Shown piece by piece: positions 1,859-16,390 of a stretch of 16,390 nucleotides of DNA. Location of the stretch: positions 1 to 16,390 of the forward strand of contig CAZFDH010000016.1 in NCBI GenBank assembly GCA_964518155.1. Direction: 5' to 3'. Position numbers and translations under genes: made by a program. This stretch comes from Candidatus Woesearchaeota archaeon. Its GTDB lineage: Archaea > Nanobdellota > Nanobdellia > Pacearchaeales > GW2011-AR1. The notes beneath the pieces were generated by a model, which saw only the letters and a list, made by a program, of their open reading frames with translations, did no database searches and was not told the origin of the DNA. Every line of letters begins with the position of its first letter. Positions within the stretch are counted from its first letter, which is position 1.

Positions 1859-1862
1859 AATA

Positions 1863-4800
1863 ATGGAAACTCAAGAATATTTTAAGAAACTAGAGAAAGG
1901 AGTAAGGGAAGCTTATGTTGTTGCAGAACAAGCAAGAGCAAAAGGACTTGACCCTGTGGATAAAGTTGAAATTCCTTTGGCAATGAGTATGGCTGAAAAA
2001 TGTGTCGGACTAATTAGTACAATTTATCCTCAGATGATGGGCTGCGGAATTTCTGATAGAATTTTAGCTTTGGAAAAAGAGCATGGTAAACTTGATCCGG
2101 CAGTGTGTTTACAAATCGCTGAAGAGGTTGCCAAACAAAAGTTTTGTAAATTTGCATCGCTGATGGAAGCAATCGATGCTGGTGCTAGATTAGGTTTTGC
2201 ATATATTACTTTAGGTGTTGTTTCTAGTCCAATTGAAGGATTGACTGAAATTAAAATTATGAAGACTAAAGAAGGAAAAGATTATTTTTCTCCTTGGTAT
2301 GCTGGTCCAGTAAGAAGTGCCGGAGGAACGGGGGCGGCTTTCTCATTAGTTATTGTCGATCATCTAAGAGAAATTTTTGGCTACGCAAAATATGATCCTA
2401 CAGAAGATGAAATTAAAAGAACTATTACCGAACTTAGAGATTATCATGAAAGAGTTACTAATCTACAATATTTTCCTTTAGAACAAGAAGCAGAATTTAT
2501 TGCAAGACATATACCTTTACAAGTTAATGGCGATCCATCGGAAAAATTAGAGGTATCTAATTATAAAAATCTGGAGAGGATCGAAACAAATAATATTCGA
2601 AGTGGTGTTTGTTTGACTTTGGCGGAGGGGTTAGCACAAAAAGCACCGAAAATAAAAAGATATGTTAAAGCTTTAAGAGAAAAAGGATATAAGCTTAGTG
2701 ATTGGGATTTTTTGGACGAATATGTTGAACTTCATGAGAAGCTAACCTCCTCAAAAACTAAGTCGAAAGATTCTGAAAGTGTTCCTACATATATGAAGGA
2801 TTTAGTTGCTGGCCGTCCGGTTTTTGGTCATCCTTCTAGATCTGGGGCATTCAGATTTAGATATGGTAGAGGAAGAGTCTCTGGATTTTCTGCAGCTTCA
2901 CTTCATCCAGCAACTATGGCAATCAGCGACGATTTTATTGCGACGGGTACACAACTAAAAATCGAAAAACCAACTAAAGGATGTGTTATAACCGCATGCG
3001 ATTTAATAGAGGGACCAATAGTAAAATTATTTAATGGAAGTGTAAAACAAATAAAAACAAGAGAAGAAGCCAAAAAAATCTATCCTGATGTTGAAGAAAT
3101 AATTTATATGGGAGATATTTTATTCCCCTTTAGTGATCTTGCTAACAGAAACTCTACATTAATCAAACCTGGATATGTTGAAGAATGGTGGTATCTAGAC
3201 TTGAATGAGAAAATAGAACAAAAACTAAATTATTACGATCTTAGTATTGACGAAGCGATTAAATTTTCGCAAGAATATGAAATTCCCCTTTATCCAAAGT
3301 ATATTTTTTATTGGACTCAAATTAGTTTAGATGAATTTAAAGAATTAGTTAATTGGTTGAGAAAATCTTATATTCGAGGGAAAAAAATTGTTTTGCCTTA
3401 TGGGAAGAAAGATCAAGATAAATTTGAAAAAGCAAAAAGAGCACTTGAGCTTTTAGGAGTTGAACATGAAGTTACAATTGAAAATGTTGTTCTGAGTGAG
3501 AAAAAAACTAAAGCCTTATTCTTGAATTTAGGAATTGATTTGTTTTTGATTGAAAAAGAAAATCTTCTTTTAGGAGAAGCTTGGAGCGAGTTTGAGATTG
3601 ATGAAAATAAAACTGTTCTTGAGATTGTAAATGATTTATCTAAATTTAAAATTAAAGATAAAGCAGGAGATTTTATTGGAACAAGAATGGGTCGGCCTGA
3701 AAAAGCAAAACTAAGAAAATTAACTGGTAGTCCAAACGTTTTGTTTTCGGTGGGAAATGAAGGTGGAAGATTAAGAAGTGTTCTTGAAGCGTGTAATGTC
3801 GGGAAAGTTCGTAGTTCTTTTCCTTTATTTTACTGTGAAAAATGTAATAAAGAAACAATTTATTCTTCTTGTGAAAAATGCGGAAGTAAATGCTCAAAAA
3901 GATATTATTATCGTTCAACGGGAGAAAAAAGTAATCAAAAACAAATTGGTGAAGAACACGGCTCATTTACTTTTACTTATGATTTAGATACTAAATATTA
4001 TTTGGAAGAGGCCTTGAATAGGATTGGGATGAAGAAGGAGGAATTGCCGACGCTAATTAAAGGGGTTAGAGGTATGAGTTCAGATAAAAAAATTCCTGAA
4101 AATTTAGCTAAAGGAATTTTGAGGGCAAAGCATGAACTACAAGTAAATAAAGATGGAACTATCAGATTTGACGCGACAGAACTTCCAATAGTCTCATTTA
4201 AACCAAAAGAAATTTTAGTTAGTGTTGAAAAATTAAAAGAAATCGGCTACACTCATGATGTTTATGGAGAAGAATTAACTAGAGATGATCAAATTTTAGA
4301 ACTAATGCCTCATGATGTTTTACTTCCTGCATCATATGAAAGTCCTGATGAAAGAGCAGATGCAGTATTCATTCGGGTTGCAAATTTCATCGACGATCTT
4401 TTACTCCGATTTTATGGAATTAATCCAATACATAATATTAAAACTAAAGAAGATCTCGTGGGAGTTTTAGGTGTTTGTATGGCCCCCCATAATTGTGCAG
4501 GAGTAATTTGTAGGTTTATTGGTTTTTCAAATACTCAAGGTCTTTTAGCAAGTCCGTACATGCATGCAGCAATTAGAAGAGATTGTGATGGTGATGAAGC
4601 AGCAGTAATGCTTTTATCTGATGTTTTGATAAATTTCTCGAGAGAATTTCTACCTAGTCACAGAGGGGGAACACAAGATGCACCCTTAGTTTTGAATGCT
4701 AAAATTGATGCGGGAGAAGTGGATGATCAGATTTTAGATTTTGAAATGGTTTATAGTTATCCTATTGAACTTTATCGTCTTGCGGAGGAGAGAAAACATT

Positions 4801-5333
4801 CTTCTGAAATCAAAATGAAAATTGTTAAGAGGGTTTTGAAAGAAGGAGGGAATCCTTTTGTGGGAATAGGTTTCACTCATGATACAACTAATTTTAATGA
4901 TGGTGTTGTTTGCAGCTCTTATAAAAAGTTAGCGACGATGCAAGAAAAAGTTCAACATCAAATGGAGCTTGTAGAGAAGATTAGAGCGGTTGACACTGCA
5001 GATACTGCTCGATTGATAATAGAAAGGCATTTCATAAGAGATATGAGAGGTAACTTGAGAAAGTTTTCTATGCAAGGATTTAGGTGTGTTGCTTGTAATG
5101 AATCGATTCGAAGACCACCTCTGACAGGGGTTTGTCCTGTGTGTGGAGGAAAAATCATTTTCACAATTCATGAAGGGGGAATAAAAAAATATCTTGAACC
5201 GACGCTAGATTTGATAAATAAATATAATTTGTCTCCTTACATAAAACAAAGTATCGAGATTACTAAACGTTATATTGATTCGGTTTTCGGAAAAGAACTA
5301 GAAAAACAAGAGGGATTGCAAAAGTGGTTTTAA
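1863..5333 (+). CDS. polC: DNA polymerase II (PolD) large catalytic subunit DP2
   Basis: About 1156 aa from ATG 1863; GGAAGG lies just upstream, and the TTG at 1848 in the ORF track overlaps the DP1 stop. It has the catalytic double-psi beta-barrel acidic motif RRDCDGDEAAV and Cys4 zinc modules CEKCNKETIYSSCEKCGSKC and CVACNE...CPVCGGK. The length fits an intein-free DP2. Confidence 0.95.
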   Translation: METQEYFKKLEKGVREAYVVAEQARAKGLDPVDKVEIPLAMSMAEKCVGLISTIYPQMMGCGISDRILALEKEHGKLDPAVCLQIAEEVAKQKFCKFASLMEAIDAGARLGFAYITLGVVSSPIEGLTEIKIMKTKEGKDYFSPWYAGPVRSAGGTGAAFSLVIVDHLREIFGYAKYDPTEDEIKRTITELRDYHERVTNLQYFPLEQEAEFIARHIPLQVNGDPSEKLEVSNYKNLERIETNNIRSGVCLTLAEGLAQKAPKIKRYVKALREKGYKLSDWDFLDEYVELHEKLTSSKTKSKDSESVPTYMKDLVAGRPVFGHPSRSGAFRFRYGRGRVSGFSAASLHPATMAISDDFIATGTQLKIEKPTKGCVITACDLIEGPIVKLFNGSVKQIKTREEAKKIYPDVEEIIYMGDILFPFSDLANRNSTLIKPGYVEEWWYLDLNEKIEQKLNYYDLSIDEAIKFSQEYEIPLYPKYIFYWTQISLDEFKELVNWLRKSYIRGKKIVLPYGKKDQDKFEKAKRALELLGVEHEVTIENVVLSEKKTKALFLNLGIDLFLIEKENLLLGEAWSEFEIDENKTVLEIVNDLSKFKIKDKAGDFIGTRMGRPEKAKLRKLTGSPNVLFSVGNEGGRLRSVLEACNVGKVRSSFPLFYCEKCNKETIYSSCEKCGSKCSKRYYYRSTGEKSNQKQIGEEHGSFTFTYDLDTKYYLEEALNRIGMKKEELPTLIKGVRGMSSDKKIPENLAKGILRAKHELQVNKDGTIRFDATELPIVSFKPKEILVSVEKLKEIGYTHDVYGEELTRDDQILELMPHDVLLPASYESPDERADAVFIRVANFIDDLLLRFYGINPIHNIKTKEDLVGVLGVCMAPHNCAGVICRFIGFSNTQGLLASPYMHAAIRRDCDGDEAAVMLLSDVLINFSREFLPSHRGGTQDAPLVLNAKIDAGEVDDQILDFEMVYSYPIELYRLAEERKHSSEIKMKIVKRVLKEGGNPFVGIGFTHDTTNFNDGVVCSSYKKLATMQEKVQHQMELVEKIRAVDTADTARLIIERHFIRDMRGNLRKFSMQGFRCVACNESIRRPPLTGVCPVCGGKIIFTIHEGGIKKYLEPTLDLINKYNLSPYIKQSIEITKRYIDSVFGKELEKQEGLQKWF

Positions 5334-5515
5334 TCCCAGATGAAATGATTTATTGCGGCTTCTATTGATCTTAATCTCGCTCTACGATGTTCATCAAGAG
5401 CGGGGCGAGCTTTATCTAATAAATCTTCATAAAATCTGTGATACTGTTCGGTCGTCATAAAAACTTGAGGTTCAACACCATTTGATAGACGAATTTTATA
5501 CTCGGGTGGACTCAT
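5330..5515 (-). CDS. Small hypothetical protein (61 aa), paralog B of a tandem pair
   Basis: ATG-initiated ORF. It shares a C-terminal block with the neighbouring ORF (RPALDEHRRARLRSIEAA..HF versus RPELDRLREAALRSEEAS..HF). No Cys or His clusters and no family I recognise. Its stop overlaps the DP2 stop in the sequence TTTAA (convergent). Confidence 0.55.
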   Translation of the reverse strand: MSPPEYKIRLSNGVEPQVFMTTEQYHRFYEDLLDKARPALDEHRRARLRSIEAAINHFIWD

Positions 5516-5555
5516 AATTTCTTAAATAAAGAATGATTTAAATTAGTTTTGGTTT

Positions 5556-5741
5556 TTAATATACAAAATGATAGTGTGATGCTTCTTCTGATCTTAATGC
5601 AGCTTCTCTTAATCTATCTAGTTCTGGACGAATCCTTTCTGAGAATTCTCTTTGAAACTCTCTTGTTTCTTCCGGAGTAAATACTTTATATGGCTGAGGA
5701 CTCCCTTCAGGAAGAATTTTGAGTCCTTTTTTATATTTCAT
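5556..5741 (-). CDS. Small hypothetical protein (61 aa), paralog A of a tandem pair
   Basis: Same length and strand as 5330..5515, separated by a 40-bp AT-rich spacer. The helix-rich C-terminal block (F..EF.E.IRPELDRLREAALRSEEA) is conserved between the two. That conservation argues both are real genes. Confidence 0.55.
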   Translation of the reverse strand: MKYKKGLKILPEGSPQPYKVFTPEETREFQREFSERIRPELDRLREAALRSEEASHYHFVY

Positions 5742-5828
5742 GATTGAAATAATTTTTATAGCTATTTAATTATTTGTGTTTTTTGGAGTAAACATAAATC
5801 TTAAAAGGGTTGTGTTTTTAGGCCTGAA

Positions 5829-6860
5829 ATGGGACGAGAGATTATTATTTATGGGCGAGTGCAGGGAGTTGGATTTAGAAACAGGATTAAGGAATTTTGT
5901 TTGGAGAATCACTTGAAAGGTTTTGTGAGAAATTTATCTGATGGGAGTGTTTATGTTTATTTGGACGCTAAAGAAAAAGAAGTTGAATTATTCTTGAACT
6001 GGATTAAAGAAATAAAAGGGTTTGTTAAAATAAACAATTTTGAACTGAGAGAAAAAAATTTTAAGTCAGAAGGATTTATTGTAAAAAAAGACAAAGGATT
6101 TTTGCGGGATAAACTTGAAAGCGAGATTAATTTATTAAGGTATTTTTTTGGCCTATCTTTTCCGCGAAATTATTTAAGAAAAATTCCTCAACATGTTGTA
6201 ATAATTCCTGATGGAAACCGTAGATGGGCTAAGAGAAGAGGGATGAATGAAAGTGAAGGGCACAAAAAATCTGCACAGTTTGGAAATGTAAAATCTTTAC
6301 TAAAAGAATGTAGTGACTTGGGTGTAAAAAGCTTTTCAATTTGGGGTTTTTCGACGGAAAACTGGAAAAGAAGTGAAGAAGAAAAGAAAATTCTTTTTGA
6401 TTTGATTTATTCTACTTTAGAAAAATTCCATAAAGAAATTAGTAAAAATAAAATCCGGTTCAGACATTTTGGCAGGAAAGATAGACTTCCGTCTAAGCTA
6501 GTTGAACTAATAAAGAAACTTGAAAAAGAAAGTGCAAAAAATAATGAGTTTAATTTTAATCTTCTTTTAGATTATGGGGGAAGAGATGAAATAATTAGGT
6601 CGATCGAAAAACTTTTGAATGCCAAAAAGAAAAAAATTAGTGAAGAAGAATTTTCTAAATATTTGGATAGTTATGGGGTTGAAGACCCTGATTTAATCAT
6701 AAGAACTTCTGGAGAAAAAAGAATCTCGGGGCTCATGCCTTGGCAAACAGTTTATTCTGAACTTTACTTCTGTGATAAATTTTTCCCTTCATTTAACAAA
6801 AATGATTTAAGAAAAGCAGTTTTTGAATACGACGGACGAGAAAGAAGACTTGGAAAATAA
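5829..6860 (+). CDS. uppS: Fusion protein: N-terminal acylphosphatase domain plus C-terminal cis-prenyltransferase (undecaprenyl/di-trans,poly-cis-polyprenyl diphosphate synthase, UppS family)
   Basis: Residues 1 to about 90, IIIYGRVQGVGFRNRIKEFCLENHLKGFVRNLSDGSVYVYLDA..., match the acylphosphatase signatures (V.G.VQGVGFR and G.V.N..DGSV). Residues from about 120 carry the UppS motifs HVVIIPDGNRRWAKRRG, FSTENWKRS and IIRTSGEKRISGLMPWQTVYSELYF. It is one uninterrupted 343-codon frame. Confidence 0.85.
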   Translation: MGREIIIYGRVQGVGFRNRIKEFCLENHLKGFVRNLSDGSVYVYLDAKEKEVELFLNWIKEIKGFVKINNFELREKNFKSEGFIVKKDKGFLRDKLESEINLLRYFFGLSFPRNYLRKIPQHVVIIPDGNRRWAKRRGMNESEGHKKSAQFGNVKSLLKECSDLGVKSFSIWGFSTENWKRSEEEKKILFDLIYSTLEKFHKEISKNKIRFRHFGRKDRLPSKLVELIKKLEKESAKNNEFNFNLLLDYGGRDEIIRSIEKLLNAKKKKISEEEFSKYLDSYGVEDPDLIIRTSGEKRISGLMPWQTVYSELYFCDKFFPSFNKNDLRKAVFEYDGRERRLGK

Positions 6861-8048
6861 TTATAGTGTGAGATAAAAAATAATCGTAGGTAATAGAAGA
6901 CATCCCATCATATTTGTTCTTTTTACTTTTGAAGTTATAGAGTAAATCCCGGTAAAGGTTGAGATTATGAGGACTAAGATCCCGATAATTCCTGAAACTA
7001 ATAGAGTAATTAAGAATATCACAAATAATGTTGTAAATGAAATCTTTGTATAATTAATTTTACTAATGTTTATTGAAAAAAATTTTGCCAGAATTGAAGT
7101 TAGAAAAAAAGAGATTACCCCGGTTATTAAAACCGCAGTTAAAATTAAAATCAAAGTCGGGAAGTTTAATTCTCCTACTAATTCCTGGATTGCAACTGCT
7201 GCACCTGTTCGCGTTTTCGAAATAAGGAAAAGTGAAAGGAAGGAAAAACCCATCACAATTGTGTTAGTTATTCCGAGCAAAACTAAAAATTCTTCTTTGT
7301 CGTTTTTTACGAGCGTGTTTCCTATAACTGCTGCTTGACCTGAACCAAGGCCAGGAAGAAAACCACACAAAGGAGAAGCAATTAAAGAACTGATTATAGG
7401 TTTCTTCAGTTTGAGTGAAGGAGGGGTGATTATTTGAGGAGGAATTTTAGTTTTTTCTTTTATACTTAGGATTATTCCGGAAGCTCCGAACAAACCAGTA
7501 AGCAAAGGCAAAAGCGGCTCGTTTATTTGAATGTTTAGAACGATCAAACCAAGAACTCCGGTCAATGAAAATACTATTAAAGCTTGAAATTTGTTTTGCT
7601 CGGTGAGGATTAAGATTAGAGAAGTTGCAATCAAAATATATCCAATGAAAGGAGTTATATTCTGATAAATTTTTGGAAAGAAAACTATAGAGACGGGTGA
7701 CAAAACGACTAAAAGAAAAATTGAAATTAAACTTCCGTAATTGGTAAACATTATTGCTTCATATGCGCGACCTTCTTTTAGAAGAGAATGGCCTGGAAGG
7801 GTTGAAAGTTCGGTGTCTGTGTCAGGCGCACCCAGAAGAATTGAAGGAATAAAGTCGATGAAAGTATGAGTTATTGCCATCGATGAAATTAAGACGACGA
7901 GATAAATTGGATTTAGTTTTGAGAGAAATGCTACGGATGAAGAAACTAAAAAAACTCCTACAAGGTTTGTATGTATTCCCGGAGTTAGGCCTGTAAAGAC
8001 CCCGGCGGTCACACCGCAGACCAAAGCGATGAAAAGCTCAAATATCAT
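6861..8048 (-). CDS. Polytopic membrane protein, probably TctA/DUF112-family (COG1784-like) transporter subunit
   Basis: 395 aa and almost entirely hydrophobic, with roughly 10 or more predicted TM segments. It has two G(L/F)xPG motifs (FTGLTPGIHTN and CGFLPGLGSGQAAV) reminiscent of TctA-family repeats. The family assignment comes from memory of the motif, not from a search. Confidence 0.6.
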   Translation of the reverse strand: MIFELFIALVCGVTAGVFTGLTPGIHTNLVGVFLVSSSVAFLSKLNPIYLVVLISSMAITHTFIDFIPSILLGAPDTDTELSTLPGHSLLKEGRAYEAIMFTNYGSLISIFLLVVLSPVSIVFFPKIYQNITPFIGYILIATSLILILTEQNKFQALIVFSLTGVLGLIVLNIQINEPLLPLLTGLFGASGIILSIKEKTKIPPQIITPPSLKLKKPIISSLIASPLCGFLPGLGSGQAAVIGNTLVKNDKEEFLVLLGITNTIVMGFSFLSLFLISKTRTGAAVAIQELVGELNFPTLILILTAVLITGVISFFLTSILAKFFSINISKINYTKISFTTLFVIFLITLLVSGIIGILVLIISTFTGIYSITSKVKRTNMMGCLLLPTIIFYLTL

Positions 8049-8210
8049 CGCTATACGCCTTATTCTCCCCTTTCTAAGTTATTGAAATGATTTAAACCTT
8101 TTTGTGAGTGTGGTTTAATATACTCTTTTTCCATTTTGCTTATCTCTCTTTGTTTTTCCGTCGCTGTTGTTTACTATTCTGGAAAGTTTTTTTGTGTAAT
8201 TTTATTGGGT

Positions 8211-8654
8211 TTAGGATTCATTGGACGTCTTGACTTGTTTTTTATCTATTTTGATGACTGGAAATTTGAGGCTCCCCCAAGAGATTGTAATTTCTTGTGG
8301 TTCTTGTGAAGAAGTTATCATGACTGGTCGTCCCTTTACCCTTTCTTTTTTTTCTAGTTTGATTAATCCCGCTTCTTCTAATACTTTCAGATGAAACAAA
8401 AAAGATTTGTAATCTAATTGATTTTTTTTAGAGCGCTTCTTATTTATATCTTCTTGAAGTTTCGAGATATTAATTTCCTTTTCTTCATTCTTCACTATGT
8501 AGCATAATATATCTAATCTCAAATCATTTGCTAAAAGTTTTAACAATATACGTCCCTCTTCCTCTGTCGATTCACCCGCAATTCCTATTGATACCTTCCT
8601 CTGAATACTAAATTTAATCTTTTTCAATCGTTCTCTCCAATTTTCTCTCGGCAT
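8211..8654 (-). CDS. Winged-helix (ArsR/PadR-like) DNA-binding protein
   Basis: 147 aa. The core LRLDILCYIVKNEEKEINISKLQEDI...FLFHLKVLEEAGLIKLEKKERVKGRP has the helix-turn-helix plus wing layout of ArsR-type regulators. It is transcribed divergently from the RHH operon. Confidence 0.6.
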   Translation of the reverse strand: MPRENWRERLKKIKFSIQRKVSIGIAGESTEEEGRILLKLLANDLRLDILCYIVKNEEKEINISKLQEDINKKRSKKNQLDYKSFLFHLKVLEEAGLIKLEKKERVKGRPVMITSSQEPQEITISWGSLKFPVIKIDKKQVKTSNES

Positions 8655-8668
8655 TATAAGAAATAAAG

Positions 8669-8728
8669 TCCCTTAATAGTTATAAATCTATCGAAATATT
8701 CTTTATGGGAATTGACTTCCCTTAATAG
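8669..8728. promoter_or_regulatory. Two direct copies of TCCCTTAATAG (8669-8679 and 8718-8728) in the divergent ArsR-like / RHH promoter region
   Basis: Exact 11-bp direct repeat, 49 bp start to start, inside the 134-bp intergenic region 8655-8788, which also has several TATA-like tracts (TATAAAT, TTTATATATA). This is a candidate operator or recombinase half-site. A third copy, GTCCCTTAAT, lies at 11157-11166. Confidence 0.35.
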
Positions 8729-8788
8729 AAAGATTTATATATACTAATTACTCTAAATATATTATAGGAGTTTAATTCATATAATAAA

Positions 8789-8920
8789 ATGGAAGTGATG
8801 ATATTCAAAATCCCTAAGGAAATGAAAGAACAGTTAGACAAATTAGCGACGAAAGAAGAGAGAACTAAAGCTTATTTTATCAGAAAAGCCATAGAGAAAT
8901 TTTTGGAGGGCAGAAAATGA
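8789..8920 (+). CDS. Ribbon-helix-helix (CopG/Arc-like) protein, 43 aa; not in the supplied ORF track
   Basis: My own translation is MEVMIFKIPKEMKEQLDKLATKEERTKAYFIRKAIEKFLEGRK*. It has the beta-strand / helix / helix RHH pattern (IFKIPKE - MKEQLDKLA - RTKAYFIRKAIEKFL). Stop TGA 8918-8920 overlaps ATG 8917 of the next gene (ATGA coupling). Confidence 0.6.
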   Translation: MEVMIFKIPKEMKEQLDKLATKEERTKAYFIRKAIEKFLEGRK

Positions 8921-9147
8921 GTAACCAAACTTTCTTAATCTGGAATGAAAAAAGTAATTCTCTTATTCAGCTTAAATGTCCTGAATCTATAAAACGGCGG
9001 ATAAAAGCGTTGGCTAAATCAGAAGGGAAGACCGTGACTTCTTATATGCTTGAAAAATCTTTGAACGAGTTGTCTCAAGAAATGAAGCTAAATAAAATAA
9101 TAGAATTGTTGGAGAAGGAGAAAAATGAAAATAATAAAGGACGCTGA
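8917..9147 (+). CDS. Second ribbon-helix-helix protein (76 aa)
   Basis: LIQLKCPESIKRRIKALAKSEGKTVTSYMLEKSLNEL fits the RHH pattern, with a charged, helical C-terminal tail. It overlaps both the upstream RHH gene (4 nt) and the downstream AAA+ gene (23 nt). Confidence 0.6.
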   Translation: MSNQTFLIWNEKSNSLIQLKCPESIKRRIKALAKSEGKTVTSYMLEKSLNELSQEMKLNKIIELLEKEKNENNKGR

Positions 9148-10222
9148 AAAACTTAGAAGCAATTATATTCCAGATAAATTATTATTTCGGGAAGATTTGA
9201 TTAGAGACATCAATCTGAAAATAAAAATCGGAACTGGAAATATGTTCTTGCAGGGAGATACTGGAACCGGTAAGACAGCTAGCGTAATGAAAGCAATAGA
9301 AAAAATTGATAACGTTCTCATTGTTTTCATAAATTGTTCTAGGTATGATACGTATACTTCTGTTGGAATGAAGATAATAGAATCTATTAAAACAACTTCT
9401 ATAAGGCCAACTGGAAGAATACGAGCAGGAATTTCTGAGGAATTGGCAAAAGTGTTAACCACAAAAAGAAAAAAGAAAATAGTTTTTATCTTTGATGAAG
9501 TGGATAAATTAATCAATAAAGAAAGAGACCATCAACAAATTTTTAATCCAATTGTAGAATCTACAAATAGTAACATTATTTTAATTTCTAATGAACCCAC
9601 CGCATTAAATAAATTAGATGCAAGACTTATAAGCAGATTATCTCCTGAAAAAAGATTTGTTCCAAAATATTTCTTTGATGAAATGTTTGAGATACTCAAA
9701 CATCGGGCGAAAATCGGTTTAGTTTCAAAGAATTATGATGTTGAAGCAATAGCAAAAATATCCAGATGGATTTTTAAAACAACTGGTGATATAAGGGAGG
9801 CATTAAATCTCTTATACGAAATTTCTTGTTTAGCTGAAAAAAATAAATGTAGGTTAACTGTCGAACTCTTTGAGGAGGCGAAAAATAGGGTAGAAGATAT
9901 GGAATTTGATGAGGCTTTTGCTTATCTTCCAACTCAACAACAATTAATAATGGCCTCAATAGCAAAAATTGCGATAAAAGAAATTGAAAATTATGCAGAC
10001 AGTACAGAAGTCTATAACTTTTACTCACAATGTGCTAGAGATAATAGCGAGCCGGTTTTACTTCAAAGGCAATTTGAAAGATTACTTCAAAAACTGATTT
10101 TCAGAAAGTTAATCGAGACTGGGACTAAAAGCCCAAAAGGCAGGAGGGGAAAAATGTTCGTTTATTATCCAAAATTTGATACTAGGAGGTTTATGGAAAA
10201 ATATTGGCCAAAGTATAGCTAA
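9125..10222 (+). CDS. Divergent Orc1/Cdc6-like AAA+ ATPase with C-terminal winged helix (probable element-encoded replication initiator)
   Basis: 365 aa. N-terminal YIPDKLLFREDLIRDI matches the Orc1 P..L.gRE.E pattern. Other motifs are Walker A GDTGTGKTA, Walker B VFIFDEVDKL, sensor-1 IILISNEP and SRL. The C-terminal wing KSPKGRRGKMFVYY parallels SKGRGGRMREIKL of the chromosomal Orc1 at nt 1-299. GGAG lies upstream of the ATG. Confidence 0.8.
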   Translation: MKIIKDAEKLRSNYIPDKLLFREDLIRDINLKIKIGTGNMFLQGDTGTGKTASVMKAIEKIDNVLIVFINCSRYDTYTSVGMKIIESIKTTSIRPTGRIRAGISEELAKVLTTKRKKKIVFIFDEVDKLINKERDHQQIFNPIVESTNSNIILISNEPTALNKLDARLISRLSPEKRFVPKYFFDEMFEILKHRAKIGLVSKNYDVEAIAKISRWIFKTTGDIREALNLLYEISCLAEKNKCRLTVELFEEAKNRVEDMEFDEAFAYLPTQQQLIMASIAKIAIKEIENYADSTEVYNFYSQCARDNSEPVLLQRQFERLLQKLIFRKLIETGTKSPKGRRGKMFVYYPKFDTRRFMEKYWPKYS

Positions 10223-10271
10223 TAACCGTCAACACAAGTCATTGTAGTTATTGTGTGTGATGTCGGTTATT
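10221..10271. repeat. Nested imperfect inverted repeat (outer arms AATAACCG / CGGTTATT, inner arms ACACAA / TTGTGT)
   Basis: The sequence is AATAACCGTCAACACAA-gtcattgtagtta-TTGTGTGTGATGTCGGTTATT. It starts at the last base of the Orc1-like stop codon and lies about 30 bp upstream of the recombinase operon. Function unknown (terminator hairpin, res/crossover site or initiator-binding site). Confidence 0.55.
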
Positions 10272-10300
10272 AGTATTAATTGAAAGGAGGTAAAAAGAAG

Positions 10301-10480
10301 ATGAGCAATAATAAATTGGAAGCAGGCGAGAAATATCTGTCTATAAAGATAGTCGGACACGAATACATTAATGTGTTCAAGAACAAAAATAAAAAATCAG
10401 ATAAAGAGCCAGACTATTCAAGCAATGGGGTCGGTGTTTGGGTTAGGACAAAAAAATCAAAGGAGGAAGAAGATATTTAG
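10301..10480 (+). CDS. Small hypothetical protein (59 aa), translationally coupled to the serine recombinase
   Basis: ATG 10301 is preceded by AAGGAGG (10284-10290) at canonical spacing, so I prefer it to the TTG at 10280. Stop TAG 10478-10480 abuts ATG 10481. Lys-rich. The segment KSDKEPDYSSNGVGVWVRTKK is noted under findings. Confidence 0.5.
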   Translation: MSNNKLEAGEKYLSIKIVGHEYINVFKNKNKKSDKEPDYSSNGVGVWVRTKKSKEEEDI

Positions 10481-11143
10481 ATGAAAGAGACTGTAATTTA
10501 TCTTAGAACTTCGACAGAAGAACAAAATCCAGAGAATCAATTAAAGGATTGTGAAGAGTTGGCCGGAAGACTTGGATTGAAAGAATACGATGTATTTCCT
10601 GAGAAGAAGTCTGCCTTCAAAGATAATGTAGAGAGGGCAGTTTTTAACTCGATTAGGTTGGCTATTCAAGAAAAGAAAATAAAGAATTTGATTGTATGGG
10701 ATTTAGACAGGCTTTATAGAAATAGATTAAAGACTGTTGATTTTATAAGAAACTCTTCTAAACTTGGTTTAAACATATATTCTTTTAGACAATCTTGGTT
10801 TGAAGATATAAAGAGAATACCCGAACCCTTTAATGAAATAATGAACGATTTAATGTTGCAGGTTATTTCTTGGATTGCGGAAGAAGAAAGTAAAAAGAAA
10901 AGTGAGAGAGTTAAATCTGCCGTTCGTAGAGAAGATGGAAATACTTTTTCATATAAGGGAAATAAATGGGGCAGAAAAAACATCGTAAACAAAGATGTTC
11001 TTAGGGATGTTTTATTTTTTTATGATAGCGGTATGTCTATAAGAGAAATATCTAAAGAAGTTTTTTATTATGATAAGAATAGAAATAAGAAGAATATCTC
11101 AAAGAGTGTTGTTCATAAAATTATTTTAGAACACAGAAGATAA
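10481..11143 (+). CDS. Small serine recombinase (resolvase/invertase family) with C-terminal HTH
   Basis: 220 aa. VIYLRTSTEEQ carries the catalytic Ser in the Y.R.S...Q motif. LIVWDLDRLYRN is the DRL.R motif and AEEESKKKSERVK the E-helix SER motif. The C-terminal GMSIREISKEV...KSVVHKII is the HTH. AGGAGG lies 15 nt upstream. Confidence 0.9.
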   Translation: MKETVIYLRTSTEEQNPENQLKDCEELAGRLGLKEYDVFPEKKSAFKDNVERAVFNSIRLAIQEKKIKNLIVWDLDRLYRNRLKTVDFIRNSSKLGLNIYSFRQSWFEDIKRIPEPFNEIMNDLMLQVISWIAEEESKKKSERVKSAVRREDGNTFSYKGNKWGRKNIVNKDVLRDVLFFYDSGMSIREISKEVFYYDKNRNKKNISKSVVHKIILEHRR

Positions 11144-11161
11144 TTTACTTTAGAGTGTCCC

Positions 11162-11177
11162 TTAATTGGTCAATTAA
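11162..11177. repeat. 7-2-7 palindrome TTAATTG-GT-CAATTAA, 19 bp after the recombinase stop
   Basis: Perfect 7-bp inverted arms surround an asymmetric GT dinucleotide. The palindrome overlaps the third GTCCCTTAAT copy (11157-11166). This geometry resembles a serine-recombinase crossover site, but the element is AT-rich and short, so it could be chance or a terminator. Confidence 0.35.
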
Positions 11178-11372
11178 AAAATAGCTATTAAACGAGTTAT
11201 TTACTGGGAAAAAATCGAAAAGGGATTTATGGACACTTACGGACAGTTTGACTATAAAAGGACGGTGTCATAGGTGCTTGTGCTGTAATGCTTCCAGAAG
11301 CAGTAACTACACTGCTACTTGGGGTTTCCTGTGTAAAAACTTCAACCACATAATCTTATACCTCAATTAATT

Positions 11373-11585
11373 TTATCTGTTTAAAGTGAAAAGTCTTTCT
11401 GGCTTATATGTTTGTTTTCCCAACCTTTCTTTAACCATCCCTTCTTTCTTCATAAACTCCAAAGCCTTAATTGTTGTTTCCCACTGGGAGCCTATTTTCT
11501 CTGAAATAGCCTTAACAGACAGTTCCTCGTTTCTCAAAACCTTCTTTATAGCAGTTATAACTTCAAGTATGTTCCTTCTTGACAT
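11373..11585 (-). CDS. Small winged-helix DNA-binding protein (70 aa), probable autoregulator
   Basis: MSRRNILEVITAIKKVLRNEELSVKAISEKIGSQWETTIKALEFMKKEGMVKERLGK... is a typical minimal wHTH, with recognition helix SQWETTIKALEFM and a wing after it. The start codon abuts an operator-like site. I prefer it to the overlapping + strand ORF 11386..11628, which is low-complexity and hydrophobic. Confidence 0.65.
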   Translation of the reverse strand: MSRRNILEVITAIKKVLRNEELSVKAISEKIGSQWETTIKALEFMKKEGMVKERLGKQTYKPERLFTLNR

Positions 11586-11639
11586 CTGTATAAAAGCACA
11601 GATATTCTTAAATATCGCAACTGTGTAATTACACAGATA
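11586..11639. promoter_or_regulatory. Bidirectional promoter: two CTGT-N8-ACAGATA sites flanking one TATA-like element
   Basis: Site 1 is CTGTATAAAAGCACAGATA (11586-11604). Site 2 is CTGTGTAATTACACAGATA (11621-11639), whose first 16 bp are a perfect palindrome. The TTCTTAAATATC tract between them lies about 25-35 bp from both divergent start codons (11585 on the minus strand, 11645 on the plus strand). That spacing is consistent with leaderless or short-leader archaeal transcripts. Confidence 0.5.
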
Positions 11640-11644
11640 GCAAA

Positions 11645-11875
11645 ATGGGAATAATTAAAAAACTCTGGAAGGCAATGGATGACACTCCGGAAGAGAAAGC
11701 TCTAATAAAAAGTCAGATTCTTGCAACTCAAATAGCTAATCAACAAAGAGAAATGATGACCTGTAAGAATTGTAAGAAGATATTTAGTGAAGGGTACCCT
11801 TATCAAAGGTATTTATTTGGGAAGGTTAAGAATTATGTTTGTAAGGACTGTGCTAAAAAATTAAAGTTGATTTAG
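11645..11875 (+). CDS. Small zinc-ribbon protein (76 aa), function unknown
   Basis: It has a CxxC...CxxC pair (CKNCKKIF...VCKDCAKKL) after a helical N-terminus. It is transcribed divergently from the wHTH gene and lies upstream of the 352-aa membrane protein. Confidence 0.55.
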   Translation: MGIIKKLWKAMDDTPEEKALIKSQILATQIANQQREMMTCKNCKKIFSEGYPYQRYLFGKVKNYVCKDCAKKLKLI

Positions 11876-11933
11876 GTTCAATAATTTAAATTTCTCTGGA
11901 AAAGTCTATTAAGTTAAAAATATCCAAAGAGTT

Positions 11934-12992
11934 ATGAGAAAAATAGACTTTGGAAAGATAAGCGATTACTTTCTAATCAGCTTGGTTTCGATTGTTTCTA
12001 TTGCTCTAATAATTTTGGAATATTTCCAAGTTCATCGACTTATCTCTCTGGCAGTTGCCATTTTATCTCTTTTAATAATTTTAATTAAGGAAATAAGAGA
12101 GAAAAACAAAGACAGCATAGAAGAAGCAGAAAGAAAACTTACAGATGAGAGAATTATAATAATAGAAAGAGAAGTCACAAAGAAAAATGTTGAGTTGGAA
12201 GACAGGCAAAAAATAATATCTGAATTTTTAAGTGAAGGAATTATTAGAGAAGAGGATTTAATTAAAAGTCTTAATCAAGAACCATTTGTTATATTGTATC
12301 ATTATAATCGTGGAATAAAGCAAGAACTACTCCAGTATTTTCCAGATAAGAAAAAACCAATAAATAAAATCTTAAATGATTTGGGATTTGTTCCTGTGGG
12401 ATTTGCTCACGGTTCTTATTTTTTCCATGTTATTGGTGCTAAGTTTCTTCCTAGACCTTTAGATGATGTTACATATTTAGAGGCATATATAAAAAAGAAA
12501 ATGAGAAATTCATTTAAGAATATCTTATTGAACTTACAAAAAAATAATCCAGAACTTTATAATAAAACCAAAGATAAAAAATTGTTTAATCTAAGTTATT
12601 TTATTGGAAAGATTTTTCCTGCACATTTGAGTGTGGGATATGTTAATTTTTCTTCATTTGATAGAGAGTTTACTTCATATTATTCTAAGTTTAGCAATCT
12701 TAATAAAATGCAAATAAATGAACAAAAGTTAAACGAGATTTTAAAATTGGCCTCATTGAAGATTTTTATTAAACAAATTCCTCCAAAAGATAGAGAAAAA
12801 ATAATCTCGAAAGAAGACGCAATAAAACAAGAATTTTCTATAAATAATTTATTAGACTATCAAACCCTCTCTTTAGAATCTTGGACTAGAGCTTTATCTA
12901 AAATACTCAAAAATGATAAGGCCTCTGTTTATGCCAAAGTAATAAGAAATTCAACACAAAGATATTGTCCAATAATTAGAGAATTTATTTGA
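11934..12992 (+). CDS. Uncharacterised membrane-anchored protein (352 aa): 2 N-terminal TM helices, a charged coiled segment and an unknown C-terminal domain
   Basis: The TM helices are YFLISLVSIVSIALIILEYF and LISLAVAILSLLIILI. Next comes KEIREKNKDSIEEAERKLTDERIIIIEREVTKKNVELEDRQK, then about 250 aa with no motif I recognise. The long ATG-initiated ORF has no competing frame. Its 3' end overlaps the res 3' end by 8 nt (convergent). Confidence 0.65.
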   Translation: MRKIDFGKISDYFLISLVSIVSIALIILEYFQVHRLISLAVAILSLLIILIKEIREKNKDSIEEAERKLTDERIIIIEREVTKKNVELEDRQKIISEFLSEGIIREEDLIKSLNQEPFVILYHYNRGIKQELLQYFPDKKKPINKILNDLGFVPVGFAHGSYFFHVIGAKFLPRPLDDVTYLEAYIKKKMRNSFKNILLNLQKNNPELYNKTKDKKLFNLSYFIGKIFPAHLSVGYVNFSSFDREFTSYYSKFSNLNKMQINEQKLNEILKLASLKIFIKQIPPKDREKIISKEDAIKQEFSINNLLDYQTLSLESWTRALSKILKNDKASVYAKVIRNSTQRYCPIIREFI

Positions 12993-15174
12993 AAGACAAG
13001 AACTTCCAACTTTCGCCTAATTTGTTCTCATTGAAAGAATAATCCTTTCCTTCGTGGTATCTACAACTGCCTTCCTTGAAAACAACAATTCCACCCCATA
13101 ACTTCTTTTTGTATTTCTTGCTATGTTCTTCAATGTGTTTGGCTAAGGCCTCCGCTTTCTCTTTTGCGTCTTCTGCTGTTCTTCCAGACTTAGTATCGAA
13201 TAGCCCTATACTTCCATCTTCCATTACTACAATAAAGTCTACATAGAAGGCTCTTTCAACTCCGTATTTGTCCGCATATTTGACTGCAAAGTATTTCTTT
13301 TCGGACTCTCCATTCTTGAACCACCATAAAACTTTATTCTTGCTTTCTAACAATTCAACAAAATCTTTTTCTGGCTGACTTCCTGACTTTTCAAAGTTAG
13401 GCTTCATAATAGATTTTTTGTAATCTACTGGCTTGTATCTTGAATTGAAACTTATAGATTCTGGAACATTCCAAACAGTATGTTCTGTTTCTCTTTTTTC
13501 AGAAAGTTCTTTTACAACTTTAAGACTATAATCTTCTTTTGCTTTGTTTACATAGTCTGTAATTAATTGGTTATTCTCCTCTCCCAAAATTATCTCTTGT
13601 ATCTTTGTGTAGTCTGAGATTTTAAGAGTCTCCTCAAAGAATTTATACAATGCAGTTTTTATTCTACCACTAGAGTCTGCTGGAGCGAATGGAGAACAAA
13701 CAGAACGAATATACAAATCAAACCGATATTGAAGTTCTTTTTCAGTAATCTTAATTTTTATTTCTCCGCCATGTTTTACAACTTGCACTTCATCTAATTT
13801 TTCTACTCTTCCATCCACCATTATAGCATTTACTAATTTTGTTGGTTGTAAATTAATCTTAGTGTGTATCCTGTCTTTCTTTGCTATGTCTAAAAATATC
13901 TTTGAAAATTTACCAGAGAGTCTAGTCTTTTCTCTTTGTCTCTTAAGATAAACTGATTGTAAATCTATGTTTTTGTATTCTTTTTTTCTTCTGGCCTCAT
14001 AAACGGTAATATAATCTTTCGCAATATCTTCGGCAATTTCAACATCTGAAAGATTTGTGAAAACATAGCCTTTGTTTAATTCTTCTGTGTCGTAATGCTT
14101 AAATTCCGGCATTCTCATAATTCTGCCGATTGTTTGGATTGAGAACACAATGCTTTTCCAATCTCTAAATAAAACTAGAATTGAACTTCTCGGACAATCC
14201 CAACCTAATGCTATGGCCTGTTTGAAGATTAAGACTTCTGTTTCATTATCTAATTTTTCTATATTCTCTAAGTTTACTTTATTGTCTTTTTCTGATAAAT
14301 AAATTGCGAGTTTACGATTCTCTATTGTTATCTTGAATTTGTCTTTTAGAGTTTTAATTATATCTTCTTTTTTATCTATCACTCCTGCTTTGGCGTCGGG
14401 CAACTGGATTAAGACTAGGGGATTAATATTAGAACCCTCTTTTTTATAGGCCTTAACTAATTCTTCTCTTTTCTTTAAAGCACATTCTATAATAAATTCA
14501 TCTGTGCTTTTACCATTAATTGTCTCTTTGTCTATCCCTAAATTTATAGCAACTTCTTTCTTTATCATTCCTTCGTCTTTAACTGCTTGAAAGTCTACTT
14601 CGACAATTCTTGATACTTCTCTAATTTGTGGAGTTGCTGAAACTTCAATAGTCACTTTAGGAGCGATGTCTCTTATTACTTCTTTTGATTTTTCCGCTTT
14701 TGCTGTGTGATGGCTTTCATCAATCACTAGAATAATTTCTCGGCCTTCATCTTTTGTATTTGAAACAACATTTGACAAGTTATTGTCTTGTTCATTTTCT
14801 CTAATGAAAATATTTCCACTTTTGTTTATACTTTGCCAATTAAAGAATAATATCTCATTCTTCCCAATCTTCTTATCTTCTAGGTCTTCAAAATCAGAAC
14901 ATTTTAGGACTCGACTATCTTCGTAATATTGTTCTAACTTATCTTTACTTTGGTCGTGCAACTGATTAACTGAAATCCAAATAAACGAAAGGTCGTTTTT
15001 GTATTTTCTTTCTGTAACTAATCTCTTTAAGGCCTCTGCAAGCATTAAAGTTTTTCCTGAACCTGTCGGAGCCTTGAAAACACAAATCTTATTTTCAGAA
15101 GATTCTAGTAACTCTATTGTTTCTGACTTTAACTTTTCTATTGCTTTGTCTTGGTAATCTTTTAATTCAATCAT
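12985..15174 (-). CDS. res: Type III restriction enzyme Res subunit (SF2 helicase-like ATPase plus C-terminal PD-(D/E)xK nuclease)
   Basis: The helicase motifs are FKAPTGSGKT (I), LVIDESHH (II), SATP (III) and QTIGRIMR (VI). The C-terminal YVDFIVVMEDGSIGLFDTKSG fits D...(D/E)xK. The likely start is MIELKDYQ at ATG 15174, which overlaps the mod stop (15167-15169) by 8 nt as ATGATTGA. The ORF-track start at 15222 is a non-ATG extension. Confidence 0.85.
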   Translation of the reverse strand: MIELKDYQDKAIEKLKSETIELLESSENKICVFKAPTGSGKTLMLAEALKRLVTERKYKNDLSFIWISVNQLHDQSKDKLEQYYEDSRVLKCSDFEDLEDKKIGKNEILFFNWQSINKSGNIFIRENEQDNNLSNVVSNTKDEGREIILVIDESHHTAKAEKSKEVIRDIAPKVTIEVSATPQIREVSRIVEVDFQAVKDEGMIKKEVAINLGIDKETINGKSTDEFIIECALKKREELVKAYKKEGSNINPLVLIQLPDAKAGVIDKKEDIIKTLKDKFKITIENRKLAIYLSEKDNKVNLENIEKLDNETEVLIFKQAIALGWDCPRSSILVLFRDWKSIVFSIQTIGRIMRMPEFKHYDTEELNKGYVFTNLSDVEIAEDIAKDYITVYEARRKKEYKNIDLQSVYLKRQREKTRLSGKFSKIFLDIAKKDRIHTKINLQPTKLVNAIMVDGRVEKLDEVQVVKHGGEIKIKITEKELQYRFDLYIRSVCSPFAPADSSGRIKTALYKFFEETLKISDYTKIQEIILGEENNQLITDYVNKAKEDYSLKVVKELSEKRETEHTVWNVPESISFNSRYKPVDYKKSIMKPNFEKSGSQPEKDFVELLESKNKVLWWFKNGESEKKYFAVKYADKYGVERAFYVDFIVVMEDGSIGLFDTKSGRTAEDAKEKAEALAKHIEEHSKKYKKKLWGGIVVFKEGSCRYHEGKDYSFNENKLGESWKFLSFK

Positions 15175-16390
15175 CTTTGAACACTCTCCTGTAAACGTGA
15201 AGTATTGCTTCTGGAATAGCACATAGTTTTGCTTTTCCTTTTAGTTCTTTAAACTCTTGTTCTGGCACACTATCGTCTAAAGAGAAAACATAAACGTTTA
15301 TTTTGTCTTTTAGTTTTTTTGCTTCTTTAACAAAGTCTTCTATATTTTCTTCATCGAAGATAATCCCTAAATAATGGTCAGTATTCTTGAATATTTTATA
15401 ACTTGTTTTTTCTACTATCGGCTCAAAAGCATTTTCCTTAATACAAATCATTTCTGTTGATTTATCAACTATCTTCTTTTTGTTTTGGTCGGTTGGTGCT
15501 GAGTCCACAAAATCAGTTTTGAAATATTTTAAGTTTCCGCTTAAACCTTCTATCTTTTCTTTTGTAGGAGTAGTGTAGCCTTTGATTACTTTCTCAACTC
15601 TGGGATAACATACTCCGGAACAAATATTTTCTTCATTATTCGTGCATAAAATAAACTTTCTATTTCCACCATAAAGTTTGTTATATTCTAATACTGCGTG
15701 GCCTGTAGTTCCAGAGCCCGCAAAGAAATCAAGAACTATGGAGTCTTCCTTTGTAGATAATTCAAGAATTTTCATAATTAGACTAATTGGTTTAGGATTG
15801 TTGAAAACTTTCTCACCAAATATCTCTTCTAATTCTTGAGTTCCATTAGTGGTTGTTCCCACATCGTCCCAAATAGATTTTGAAACAAGCCCTCTATCCT
15901 CGCATTCGCTTAAATACCTCTTTAATTGTGGTTTTGAATTACCAGTTTTCCCAAATATTATTCTTCCTTCTTTTAAAAATCTCTGAAATTCTTCTTTTGT
16001 TGTTCTCCAACATCTTCCTTTTGGAGGCATATAAATTTCTCCAGTCTTAGGGTTTTTTATTGGATAAGTTAAATTAGGTCTTATGTTTGGTGCATCGAAT
16101 GGGTCTGCAGTCCAATCTCCACGAGGGTCTTTATCTGGATTTGAAAACTTCTCTCCATTGGCCTTAAGTCTAAATTCCTTTTTTATTTTTTGTAGTTTGC
16201 TGATATTTTTAGCATATAGAAATGTGTGATTATGATTTAAAGATATTATTGCGTCATTGGATACGGATTTTCTCGAATTCCATATTACATCAATTATAAA
16301 ATTTTTCTCTCCAAAAACTTCATCACATAATATCTTTAGTTGGGCGAATTCATTGTCATCTATAGAAATAAATATGACTCCACTCTCCAC
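15167..16390 (-). CDS. mod: Type III (beta-class N6-adenine/N4-cytosine) DNA methyltransferase Mod subunit, N-terminus beyond the right edge
   Basis: ESGVIFISIDDNEFAQLKILCDEVFGEKNFI is the conserved block that follows the (off-window) DPPY motif in Type III Mod proteins. LDFFAGSGTTGHAV is the AdoMet-binding motif I, placed late as in beta-class enzymes, and a variable region lies between the two. The mod-res order with overlap is typical of Type III operons. Confidence 0.88.
   Translation of the reverse strand: MESGVIFISIDDNEFAQLKILCDEVFGEKNFIIDVIWNSRKSVSNDAIISLNHNHTFLYAKNISKLQKIKKEFRLKANGEKFSNPDKDPRGDWTADPFDAPNIRPNLTYPIKNPKTGEIYMPPKGRCWRTTKEEFQRFLKEGRIIFGKTGNSKPQLKRYLSECEDRGLVSKSIWDDVGTTTNGTQELEEIFGEKVFNNPKPISLIMKILELSTKEDSIVLDFFAGSGTTGHAVLEYNKLYGGNRKFILCTNNEENICSGVCYPRVEKVIKGYTTPTKEKIEGLSGNLKYFKTDFVDSAPTDQNKKKIVDKSTEMICIKENAFEPIVEKTSYKIFKNTDHYLGIIFDEENIEDFVKEAKKLKDKINVYVFSLDDSVPEQEFKELKGKAKLCAIPEAILHVYRRVFKDD

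Follow-up and report, generated by a model that had tools for sequence, protein, structure and literature searches.

The stretch of DNA studied here (the window) comprises positions 1-16,390, i.e. nearly all, of contig C16 (16,515 nt) in assembly GCA_964518155.1 of a Candidatus Woesearchaeota archaeon, a small-genome DPANN archaeon represented by 754 kb in 65 contigs (~90% complete, ~32% GC). The named homologues of the window's proteins come from Nanoarchaeota, Pacearchaeota and Woesearchaeota bins. A preliminary description, made from the letters alone, had pointed to a canonical Orc1 C-terminus and, separate from it, a gene for a 365-aa Orc1/Cdc6-like protein (9125-10222), set among ribbon-helix-helix (RHH) and winged helix-turn-helix (wHTH) regulators, a resolvase-type recombinase and a restriction-modification (R-M) system. 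A listing of open reading frames (ORFs) together with Pfam recovered all the genes named in it, and Pfam, PHROG and PADLOC bear out their setting. It had further proposed that positions 8211-16390 form an island, namely an integrated or integrating plasmid-like element, built around a serine rather than a tyrosine recombinase. The island is real, but its left end lies at ~7995, inside a gene of the tctA transporter family, and it continues past the contig onto another contig of the assembly, C9. That it is an integrated plasmid-like element is supported by the separate clade formed by the Orc1-like protein and its few close relatives, by an apparently circular related replicon and by empty sites in related genomes. 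The idea of a serine-recombinase-based island is not supported: the C9 end codes for a tyrosine integrase beside a tctA stub at the right attachment site (attR), and to judge from the gene comparisons below the insertion was almost certainly made by this enzyme and not by the serine recombinase.

Delimitation of the integrated element

The features that delimit the element are listed below; coordinates without a contig name are those of the window.

6861-8048, minus strand: gene of the tctA transporter family (Pfam TctA, 5e-45), the integration target
7995-8048, minus strand: tctA codons 1-18, element-supplied according to the mosaic 5' end seen against occupied and empty alleles
7987-7994, minus strand: crossover core ACAGGCCT of the left attachment site (attL), tctA codons 19-21 (T-G-L), where leftover tctA 5' ends stop matching
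8049-8210, no strand: element-derived spacer, now the tctA upstream region, with the motif GTGTGGTTT at 8108-8116
C9 1704-2564: tyrosine integrase (Phage_integrase, 2.7e-24) with a SHOCT-like C-terminal tail
C9 2799-3275: 158-aa partner gene, conserved beside the integrase
C9 3363-3370: attR core ACCGGCCT, counterpart of the attL core

The boundaries, at tctA codons 19-21 and at ~3362 on C9, were located by comparison with related genomes. In G002, which belongs to the same genus, and in G004, the block orc1-DP1-DP2-...-tctA directly adjoins the genes that are found here on C9 from 4420 onward (host genes, i.e. a class-I tRNA synthetase gene and its neighbours), which implies that the DNA from tctA on C16 to ~3.4 kb into C9 is an insertion. 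At these empty sites the spacer 8049-8210 is missing and tctA abuts the next host gene. Conversely, the target is duplicated here, as the left junction holds an intact tctA and the right one a stub of its 5' end. This stub, just past the island end on C9, is a copy of the first ~20 tctA codons; on the tctA strand it gives the short frame VLIQIIFFILLGVLAGTFTGL, which runs on into unrelated residues and a stop. Such leftover 5' ends lose their likeness to tctA exactly at T-G-(L) in G000, JGI63, G022, G372 and G125, and the core common to attL and attR is ACAGGC(CT).

The 5' end of the intact tctA is itself mosaic. Its nt 1-54 are 72% identical to the occupied allele of a JGI metagenome contig (JGI63, see below) as against 46% to the empty-site alleles, and the same-genus genomes G001 and G002 share 90% identity over tctA nt 64-243 as against 43% over nt 1-54. 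The GC content of nt 1-54 amounts to 50-52% in occupied alleles, with 50% in the allele of this genome, and to 26-35% in empty alleles and stubs. Both the identity and the GC of this mosaic indicate that the element puts its own DNA in place of the promoter and of tctA codons 1-18, and the gene stays intact because the element brought these replacements along. Scans for tRNA genes and Rfam families found nothing in the window and on C9; the target is thus not a tRNA gene. Motifs resembling GTGGTTT occur just inside attR (C9 3343-3359), in the spacer (8108-8116) and near attL of JGI63, and could be binding sites of the integrase or of its 158-aa partner, a role that we infer only. Conserved at a distance of ~15 nt from the core are TAGCGTGGTTT here and, in G022 (L064 ~1095-1105), AAACCACGCTA on the opposite strand.

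The far end of the island (C9 1-3300) codes for an RHH protein, a 309-aa protein, a YdjM-like protein, the tyrosine integrase, a 78-aa ORF and the 158-aa ORF. The integrase gene lies 800 nt from attR, its product begins directly at the catalytic domain, and in an alignment all catalytic residues are present (R41, K66, H160, R163, H186 and Y195). Orthologues of the integrase were found in 13 of the 401 species-level genomes of the order, each directly after the 158-aa gene, a pairing that suggests a role for the 158-aa protein as partner of the integrase. The two genes abut in all 12 other genomes; here the extra 78-aa ORF (C9 2566-2802) separates them. The element as known consists of C16 7995-16515 (8,521 nt) and 3,362 nt of C9, together ~11.9 kb, plus the gap between the contigs.

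The Orc1/Cdc6-like protein and its surroundings

The part of the island that follows the spacer carries a compact block of regulators, the Orc1-like gene and the recombinase gene.

8211-8654, minus strand: 147-aa wHTH (ArsR-like) regulator (Pfam HTH_20, 6.5e-4; NCBIfam ArsR/SmtB, 4.8e-6), divergent from the replication operon
8655-8788, no strand: AT-rich divergent promoter region in which TCCCTTAATAG stands twice in direct orientation (8669-8679 and 8718-8728)
8789-8920, plus strand: 43-aa CopG/Arc-like RHH protein, first gene of the operon (PHROG 7325, CopG-like repressor, 1.1e-8)
8917-9147, plus strand: 76-aa weak RHH-type protein, overlapping both neighbours (Pfam ParD, 1e-4, and NikA-like, 3.7e-3; NCBIfam MobA, 2.4e-4; all below cut-offs)
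9125-10222, plus strand: intact gene for a 365-aa Orc1/Cdc6-like AAA+ protein, putative replication initiator of the element (Pfam, NCBIfam and structure match)
10219-10273, plus strand: long imperfect hairpin directly after the Orc1-like stop (DNA fold -12.8 kcal/mol, z = -5.9 versus shuffles; inverted repeat I2)
10280-10480, plus strand: small lysine-rich ORF (66 aa) without a family match, likely start ATG 10302, after GGAGG
10481-11143, plus strand: 220-aa small serine recombinase of the resolvase/invertase type (Pfam Resolvase, 5.7e-24, residues 5-150)

In the Orc1-like protein Pfam recognizes Cdc6_C (8.7e-10; 38.9 bits versus a cut-off of 25.1), Cdc6_lid (1.2e-6), AAA_22 and AAA, and the winged-helix Cdc6_C was also found in a genome-wide scan. 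The best solved structure is that of S. solfataricus Orc1-1 (2qby_A, 5e-21, residues 6-343), and Walker A (GDTGTGKTA), Walker B (FDEVD) and sensor-2 (GDIREAL) motifs can be read from the sequence. By these features the protein is a divergent member of the Orc1/Cdc6 family. Its best matches in 60 relatives reach 25-33% identity and number one per genome, namely the chromosomal Orc1 encoded beside polD. A word-indexed search yielded 13 proteins at 46-64% identity, followed by a sharp fall to chromosomal Orc1, and an exhaustive HMMER search of 1.84 billion representatives recovered no more than 10 clusters at E <= 1e-30. In an unrooted tree of 101 rows the 15 clade members are monophyletic (Shimodaira-Hasegawa-like approximate likelihood ratio, SH-aLRT, 100; stem length 0.73), with the chromosomal DPANN Orc1 proteins in another group. 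A clade member is present in 6 of the 401 species-level genomes of the order, which belong to six genera of one family.

Across the nine contexts of clade members that were inspected, the constant neighbours are small RHH or helix-turn-helix (HTH) genes and a divergent wHTH gene; a tyrosine integrase is on the contig in six (in this genome by way of C9) and a resolvase in five. In JGI63, L025, L027 and L049, too, this place is taken by a wHTH gene. The TCCCTTAATAG copies in the divergent promoter adjoin TATA-like boxes, and the exact 9-mer of this repeat has three copies in the window, all on the plus strand and all intergenic within the island, the third at 11158, beyond the recombinase gene. 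In related elements the corresponding position has repeats with other motifs, a pattern that operators or iterons specific to each element should show, and we regard the TCCCTTAATAG repeats as candidate operators or origin-proximal binding sites. The hairpin is likewise a candidate, either for a terminator or for an origin-associated structure. A scan of sigma-70 promoters and terminators, a promoter type that is wrong for archaea, gave counts equal to those in shuffled sequence.

The serine recombinase matches PHROG 125 (DNA invertase) at 1.8e-27 over its full length and shows the motifs YLRTSTEEQ (Ser11) and DLDRLYRN. It has the features of a small resolvase or invertase and lacks the layout of a large serine integrase (400-700 aa, with recombinase and zinc-ribbon domains), since it has 220 aa and the Resolvase domain only; a match to CcrA covers just the first 141 of 442 positions. 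Pfam detects no C-terminal HTH, which is annotated in some homologues only. The family is very abundant in DPANN-type metagenome contigs (>1,000 homologues, many at 50-73% identity), and its member here is single-copy, with a counterpart in 1 of the 60 relatives. Its members typically come last in an array of small ORFs that resembles a replication module. For three close homologues the array is co-directional and of the sort common in the replication modules of mobile elements; one of these modules carries a PrimPol-AAA_25 helicase. By this company the recombinase is probably a multimer resolvase or a similar maintenance enzyme of the element.

Related elements at the same site and elsewhere

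Both junctions lie on a single contig in two cases. In JGI63, a 63-kb JGI metagenome contig, the order is DP2 ... tctA / wHTH, RHH, small ORFs, Orc1-like gene (48% identity), RadC, Type I R-M, PD-(D/E)xK, AAA_14 ATPase, integrase (60%), 158-aa gene (58%) / stub MLLQLIIAIFLGLLAGTLTG-K-stop / host genes, and a serine recombinase is missing from this element. In G022 the contig reads synthetase (TyrRS) / stub MLLEVFIFILLGILAGTITGL-stop / 158-aa gene, integrase, DUF4238, Type III mod (559 aa, full-length) and res, terminase large subunit, PrimPol-AAA_25 helicase / tctA, DP2, DP1, orc1. The G022 island (G022:C13 12000-33800; L064, L065) measures ~19.6 kb and has the orthologous module of integrase and 158-aa gene without an Orc1-like gene. 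The replication modules found at this one site thus differ: a member of the Orc1/Cdc6 clade here and in JGI63, a PrimPol-helicase with a terminase in G022. The G022 element is possibly a provirus or satellite, and the tctA 5' end that it supplied looks shortened.

The same-genus genome G001 (contigs C72 and C64; L015, L067) shows an element-type, GC-rich tctA 5' end and has a more distant pair of integrase and 158-aa gene (~46% identity) 2.4 kb from the synthetase gene. To judge from these features, its tctA site is occupied by another element, while the site is empty in G002.

A member of the clade also occurs on L027 (NCBI GCA_004196255.1, SDBU01008858.1, a metagenome assembly), a contig of 11,366 nt with a terminal direct overlap of 99 nt that indicates a circular replicon. 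Besides an Orc1-like protein (58% identity), it codes for a resolvase, a wHTH and an HTH_3 protein, a 938-aa protein and a tyrosine integrase that has an N-terminal domain; the 938-aa protein and several smaller ones match no family, and the Orc1-like protein is the only one there with a clear match to a replication family. The L027 integrase is not orthologous to that on C9. As an apparent circle, L027 supports the plasmid-like nature of the family.

Cargo genes

The remainder of the island within the window is occupied by a small block of regulatory and other genes (11373-12992) and by a Type III R-M pair.

11373-11585, minus strand: 70-aa wHTH protein
11621-11636: perfect 16-nt palindrome CTGTGTAATTACACAG, in the divergent promoter (11583-11639) between the 70-aa wHTH gene and the Zn-ribbon ORF
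11645-11875, plus strand: 76-aa Zn-ribbon-like ORF
11934-12992, plus strand: 352-aa protein
12985-15222, minus strand: Type III restriction subunit Res, 745 aa (Pfam ResIII, 7.3e-23; PADLOC REase_III, 3.5e-18)
15167-16390, minus strand: Type III methyltransferase Mod (PADLOC MTase_III, 5.5e-78, from profile position 126 of 542)

Pfam, NCBIfam, PADLOC and PHROG gave no match for the 352-aa protein. The palindrome is likely an operator by its position and symmetry; a half-site repeat related to CTGTGTAATTACACAG lies 35 nt upstream of it. Res shares 31% identity with its counterpart in the island that G022 carries at this site. The mod frame opens at C16 16402, with an in-frame stop at 16403-16405, and FAGSG is present; as assembled, Mod is without its first 125-200 residues and the DPPY motif, so that the pair does not make up a complete Type III R-M system. 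The break falls in the last ~130 nt of C16, where read support drops to zero, and the truncation may be an artefact of a poorly covered contig end. When the missing N-terminus was sought elsewhere in the genome, the only other strong match was a C-terminal fragment on C62. Upstream of the mod frame (C16 16390-16515; L020, L031) there is a GGAGG followed by the ATG of a 32-codon ORF with CPVCG in another frame; in this stretch either mod is disrupted or the contig end is misassembled.

Proposed mechanism and alternative explanations

We consider it likely that window positions 7995-16390 make up the left portion of a plasmid-like element, integrated and at least 11.9 kb long, that runs to the end of C16 (16515) and, beyond a gap in the assembly, ends on C9 at ~3362. 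The comparisons show that the tyrosine recombinase (C9 1704-2564), probably together with its 158-aa partner, recombined the element into tctA codons 19-21 and left the original tctA 5' end as a stub at the far junction. The wHTH gene and the divergent RHH-RHH-Orc1/Cdc6-like operon would form a module for replication and control, in which the Orc1-like protein, as the presumed initiator, would bind an origin on the free element and recruit the host's MCM and replisome; the serine recombinase probably serves as a resolvase, by which circles of the element would be kept as monomers. Both the Type III R-M pair and the block of wHTH, Zn-ribbon and 352-aa genes are cargo. The nearness to orc1-polD follows from the target, as tctA lies there in this archaeal family. 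Two observations that the preliminary description had named as speaking against an accessory element, i.e. synteny of the gene set across relatives and grouping of the Orc1-like protein with chromosomal Orc1, were looked for: the gene set is not syntenic, and the tree puts the protein in its separate clade. In synteny, conservation and grouping alike, the protein does not behave as a paralogue of the chromosomal Orc1.

Several points weigh against this reading. The link between C16 and C9 is based on the synteny in relatives and on the homologous elements and not on a bridging read or contig, and the gap could hold other contigs or a second, tandem element. In the public reads no bridge was found in the sole run that holds the sequence (share 0.93, ~5.6x word depth); the Logan contigs of this source run end ~130 nt before the end of C16, read support there is zero, and the contig break looks like low coverage. 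The common att core measures only 5-8 nt, without a long exact direct repeat, and the island's left end (on C16) has no meaningful exact direct or inverted repeat of >=13 nt in common with C9. The profile of GC along the contig, which had been suggested as a check, did not set the island apart: neither GC (0.26-0.37 throughout) nor skew contrasts with the flanks. The 158-aa protein has no family or fold match in Pfam, NCBIfam, PHROGs or Foldseek, where its AlphaFold model (predicted local distance difference test score, pLDDT, 74.7) found nothing in the PDB better than E = 1.4. The Orc1-like protein scores 170.5 bits against TIGR02928, just under the curated cut-off of 181.3 (E = 4.5e-50), and no origin was identified, the candidates being only the two repeat copies (8669 and 8718) and the hairpin (10219-10273). 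Finally, mod looks truncated, so that the element may be decaying rather than active.

That the serine recombinase is the integrase of the island, which would make this a serine-recombinase-based archaeal integrative element, is an idea suggested by a recombinase that is catalytically intact by its motifs and lies inside the island beside the Orc1-like gene, by the resolvase-family genes that accompany the clade in five of nine contexts and by the lack of a tyrosine integrase in the window itself. Its size and its resolvase/invertase layout are not those of a large serine integrase, however, and the JGI element, which uses this att site, carries by attR the orthologous tyrosine integrase and no serine recombinase. 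The G022 island gives no tblastn match to the serine recombinase, and the whole G022 genome none at E <= 1e-20, while close homologues of the recombinase sit in the replication modules of other elements, beside different replication proteins. These comparisons largely refute a serine integrase, which we regard as highly improbable. The recombinase might instead delete or excise a nested mini-element, with the RHH-RHH-Orc1-like-recombinase block (~8669-11167) as a self-replicating cassette between direct copies of GTCCCTTAAT. Copies of this repeat are found at 8668 and 11157, and TCCCTTAAT also at 8718; they are all on the plus strand, intergenic and the sole exact copies in the window, and resolvases do act on directly repeated sites. 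Yet the repeat has only 9-10 nt, two of its three copies flank TATA-like boxes in the divergent promoter in an operator-like manner, four related resolvase-carrying elements show no bracketing repeat, and no resolvase accompanies this replication module in the JGI element, all of which makes such a cassette quite improbable.

The remaining alternative concerns the Orc1/Cdc6-like ATPase, which could be part of a defence or regulatory cargo module and not an initiator. The island does carry R-M cargo, the TIGR02928 score falls below its cut-off, the origin is not mapped, and any replication of the G022 element at this site would rely on a PrimPol-helicase. The Orc1-like gene, however, is not beside a methyltransferase gene here, nor in any of the eight other contexts inspected, whereas its RHH/HTH and divergent wHTH neighbours are a typical layout of plasmid replication control. 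All three Orc1 domains are kept, including the origin-binding winged helix; the protein is the only clear replication-family protein on the apparently circular L027, and PADLOC assigns it no defence family. We therefore hold a cargo role to be improbable and retain the integrated plasmid-like element, with the Orc1-like protein as its putative initiator, as the preferred interpretation.

Flanking host genes

The window begins with host genes, which lie outside the element.

3-299, plus strand: 3' end of the chromosomal orc1/cdc6 gene (winged helix; Pfam Cdc6_C, 8.3e-23)
299-1858, plus strand: small subunit DP1 of DNA polymerase D (PolD) (Pfam)
1848-5333, plus strand: PolD large subunit DP2 (Pfam)
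5829-6860: acylphosphatase-UppS fusion ORF (Pfam), in the host part of the window

The chromosomal Orc1 C-terminus shares 77% identity with the single Orc1 that G001 and G002, of the same genus, each possess; the gene's N-terminal part was sought in the assembly and is absent from it. The PolD genes are syntenic in G001, G002, G004 and G025 at 58-71% identity. Downstream of polD there are two tandem 61-aa ORFs (5330-5515 and 5556-5741, minus strand) without a family match, which share a 33-nt stretch of 76% identity at their 3' ends (repeat D5) and look like small paralogues. The ORF at 5829-6860 combines an acylphosphatase domain (5.7e-17) and a complete undecaprenyl-diphosphate synthase domain (2.2e-69) in one frame, and it has no match at the relatives' loci that hold the orc1-polD-tctA block.

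Relation to known systems and significance

Integrated archaeal plasmids with their own Orc1/Cdc6 are well known, and the basic finding is in that sense ordinary. Krupovic et al. (2019, PMC6563490) describe integrated elements of thaumarchaea, among which NitAQ6f-E1, NitGar-E3 and NitVie-E3 code for Cdc6/Orc1; the elements of that study target tRNA genes in 39 cases, intergenic regions in 15 and the 3'-distal parts of protein genes in 14. The element described here resembles them in its site-specific integration by a tyrosine recombinase, an element-coded Orc1/Cdc6 that presumably recruits the host replisome, defence cargo, and short att sites that need confirmation against the empty sites of relatives (PMC6563490). 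Unlike them, it resides in a DPANN host, its Orc1-like protein belongs to a small clade of its own, and its target is the 5' end of a protein gene, of which promoter and first 18 codons are replaced. With S. solfataricus Orc1-1 (2qby chain A) and chromosomal Orc1 in general the Orc1-like protein shares a full-length alignment over AAA+, lid and winged helix with intact Walker A, Walker B and sensor-2; from the chromosomal Orc1 of DPANN relatives it differs by an identity of 25-33%, a length shorter by ~40 residues and its separate clade, as well as by its sporadic occurrence within an att-bounded island.

Integrases whose gene stays intact on integration are those of the pNOB8 type. The C9 integrase fits this type in that its gene is intact after integration and lies beside one att site, and in that the R-K-H-R-H-Y residues are present; it differs in starting at the catalytic domain, in its SHOCT-like C-terminal tail, in being always paired with the 158-aa gene and in a target that is not a tRNA gene. 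A scheme of two classes of archaeal integrases has been set out by Badel et al. (2021, PMC8371274). The 220-aa recombinase, in turn, is like the gamma-delta/Tn3 resolvases and the Hin/Gin/Pin invertases in its N-terminal catalytic domain, its YxRxSxxxQ and DRLxR motifs and its length of ~200 aa, and like the small serine recombinases of plasmids and transposons in its location by the replication genes of a plasmid-like element. Unlike in the gamma-delta/Tn3 and Hin/Gin/Pin systems, no res or inversion sites were identified here and the C-terminal HTH goes undetected by Pfam. Archaeal serine recombinases have been seen in transposons and have never been fully investigated or characterised experimentally (Badel et al. 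2021, PMC8371274). The idea of a serine-recombinase-based archaeal island is hereby corrected, and the tctA locus offers a cleanly delimited example of an integrated element with both occupied and empty sites.

A literature search found no description of such elements in Pacearchaeota/Woesearchaeota-type lineages, nor of this element family. A target at the 5' end of a protein gene, with replacement of promoter and N-terminus, is less usual than targets in tRNA genes or at 3' ends, and by this replacement the element controls the expression of a host transporter. The use of one integration module (the integrase and its 158-aa partner) with different replication modules provides a handle on how such elements are assembled from modules. 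We put forward, tentatively and as somewhat less probable than an even chance, that these cases represent an undescribed family of DPANN elements, which would target tctA codons 19-21 with takeover of the promoter and 18 codons, use a catalytic-domain-only integrase with an obligatory 158-aa partner, swap replication modules and exist as free circles too. If this is true, an integrated Orc1-like gene together with its origin could act as an extra chromosomal origin, at a site ~8 kb from the chromosomal orc1.

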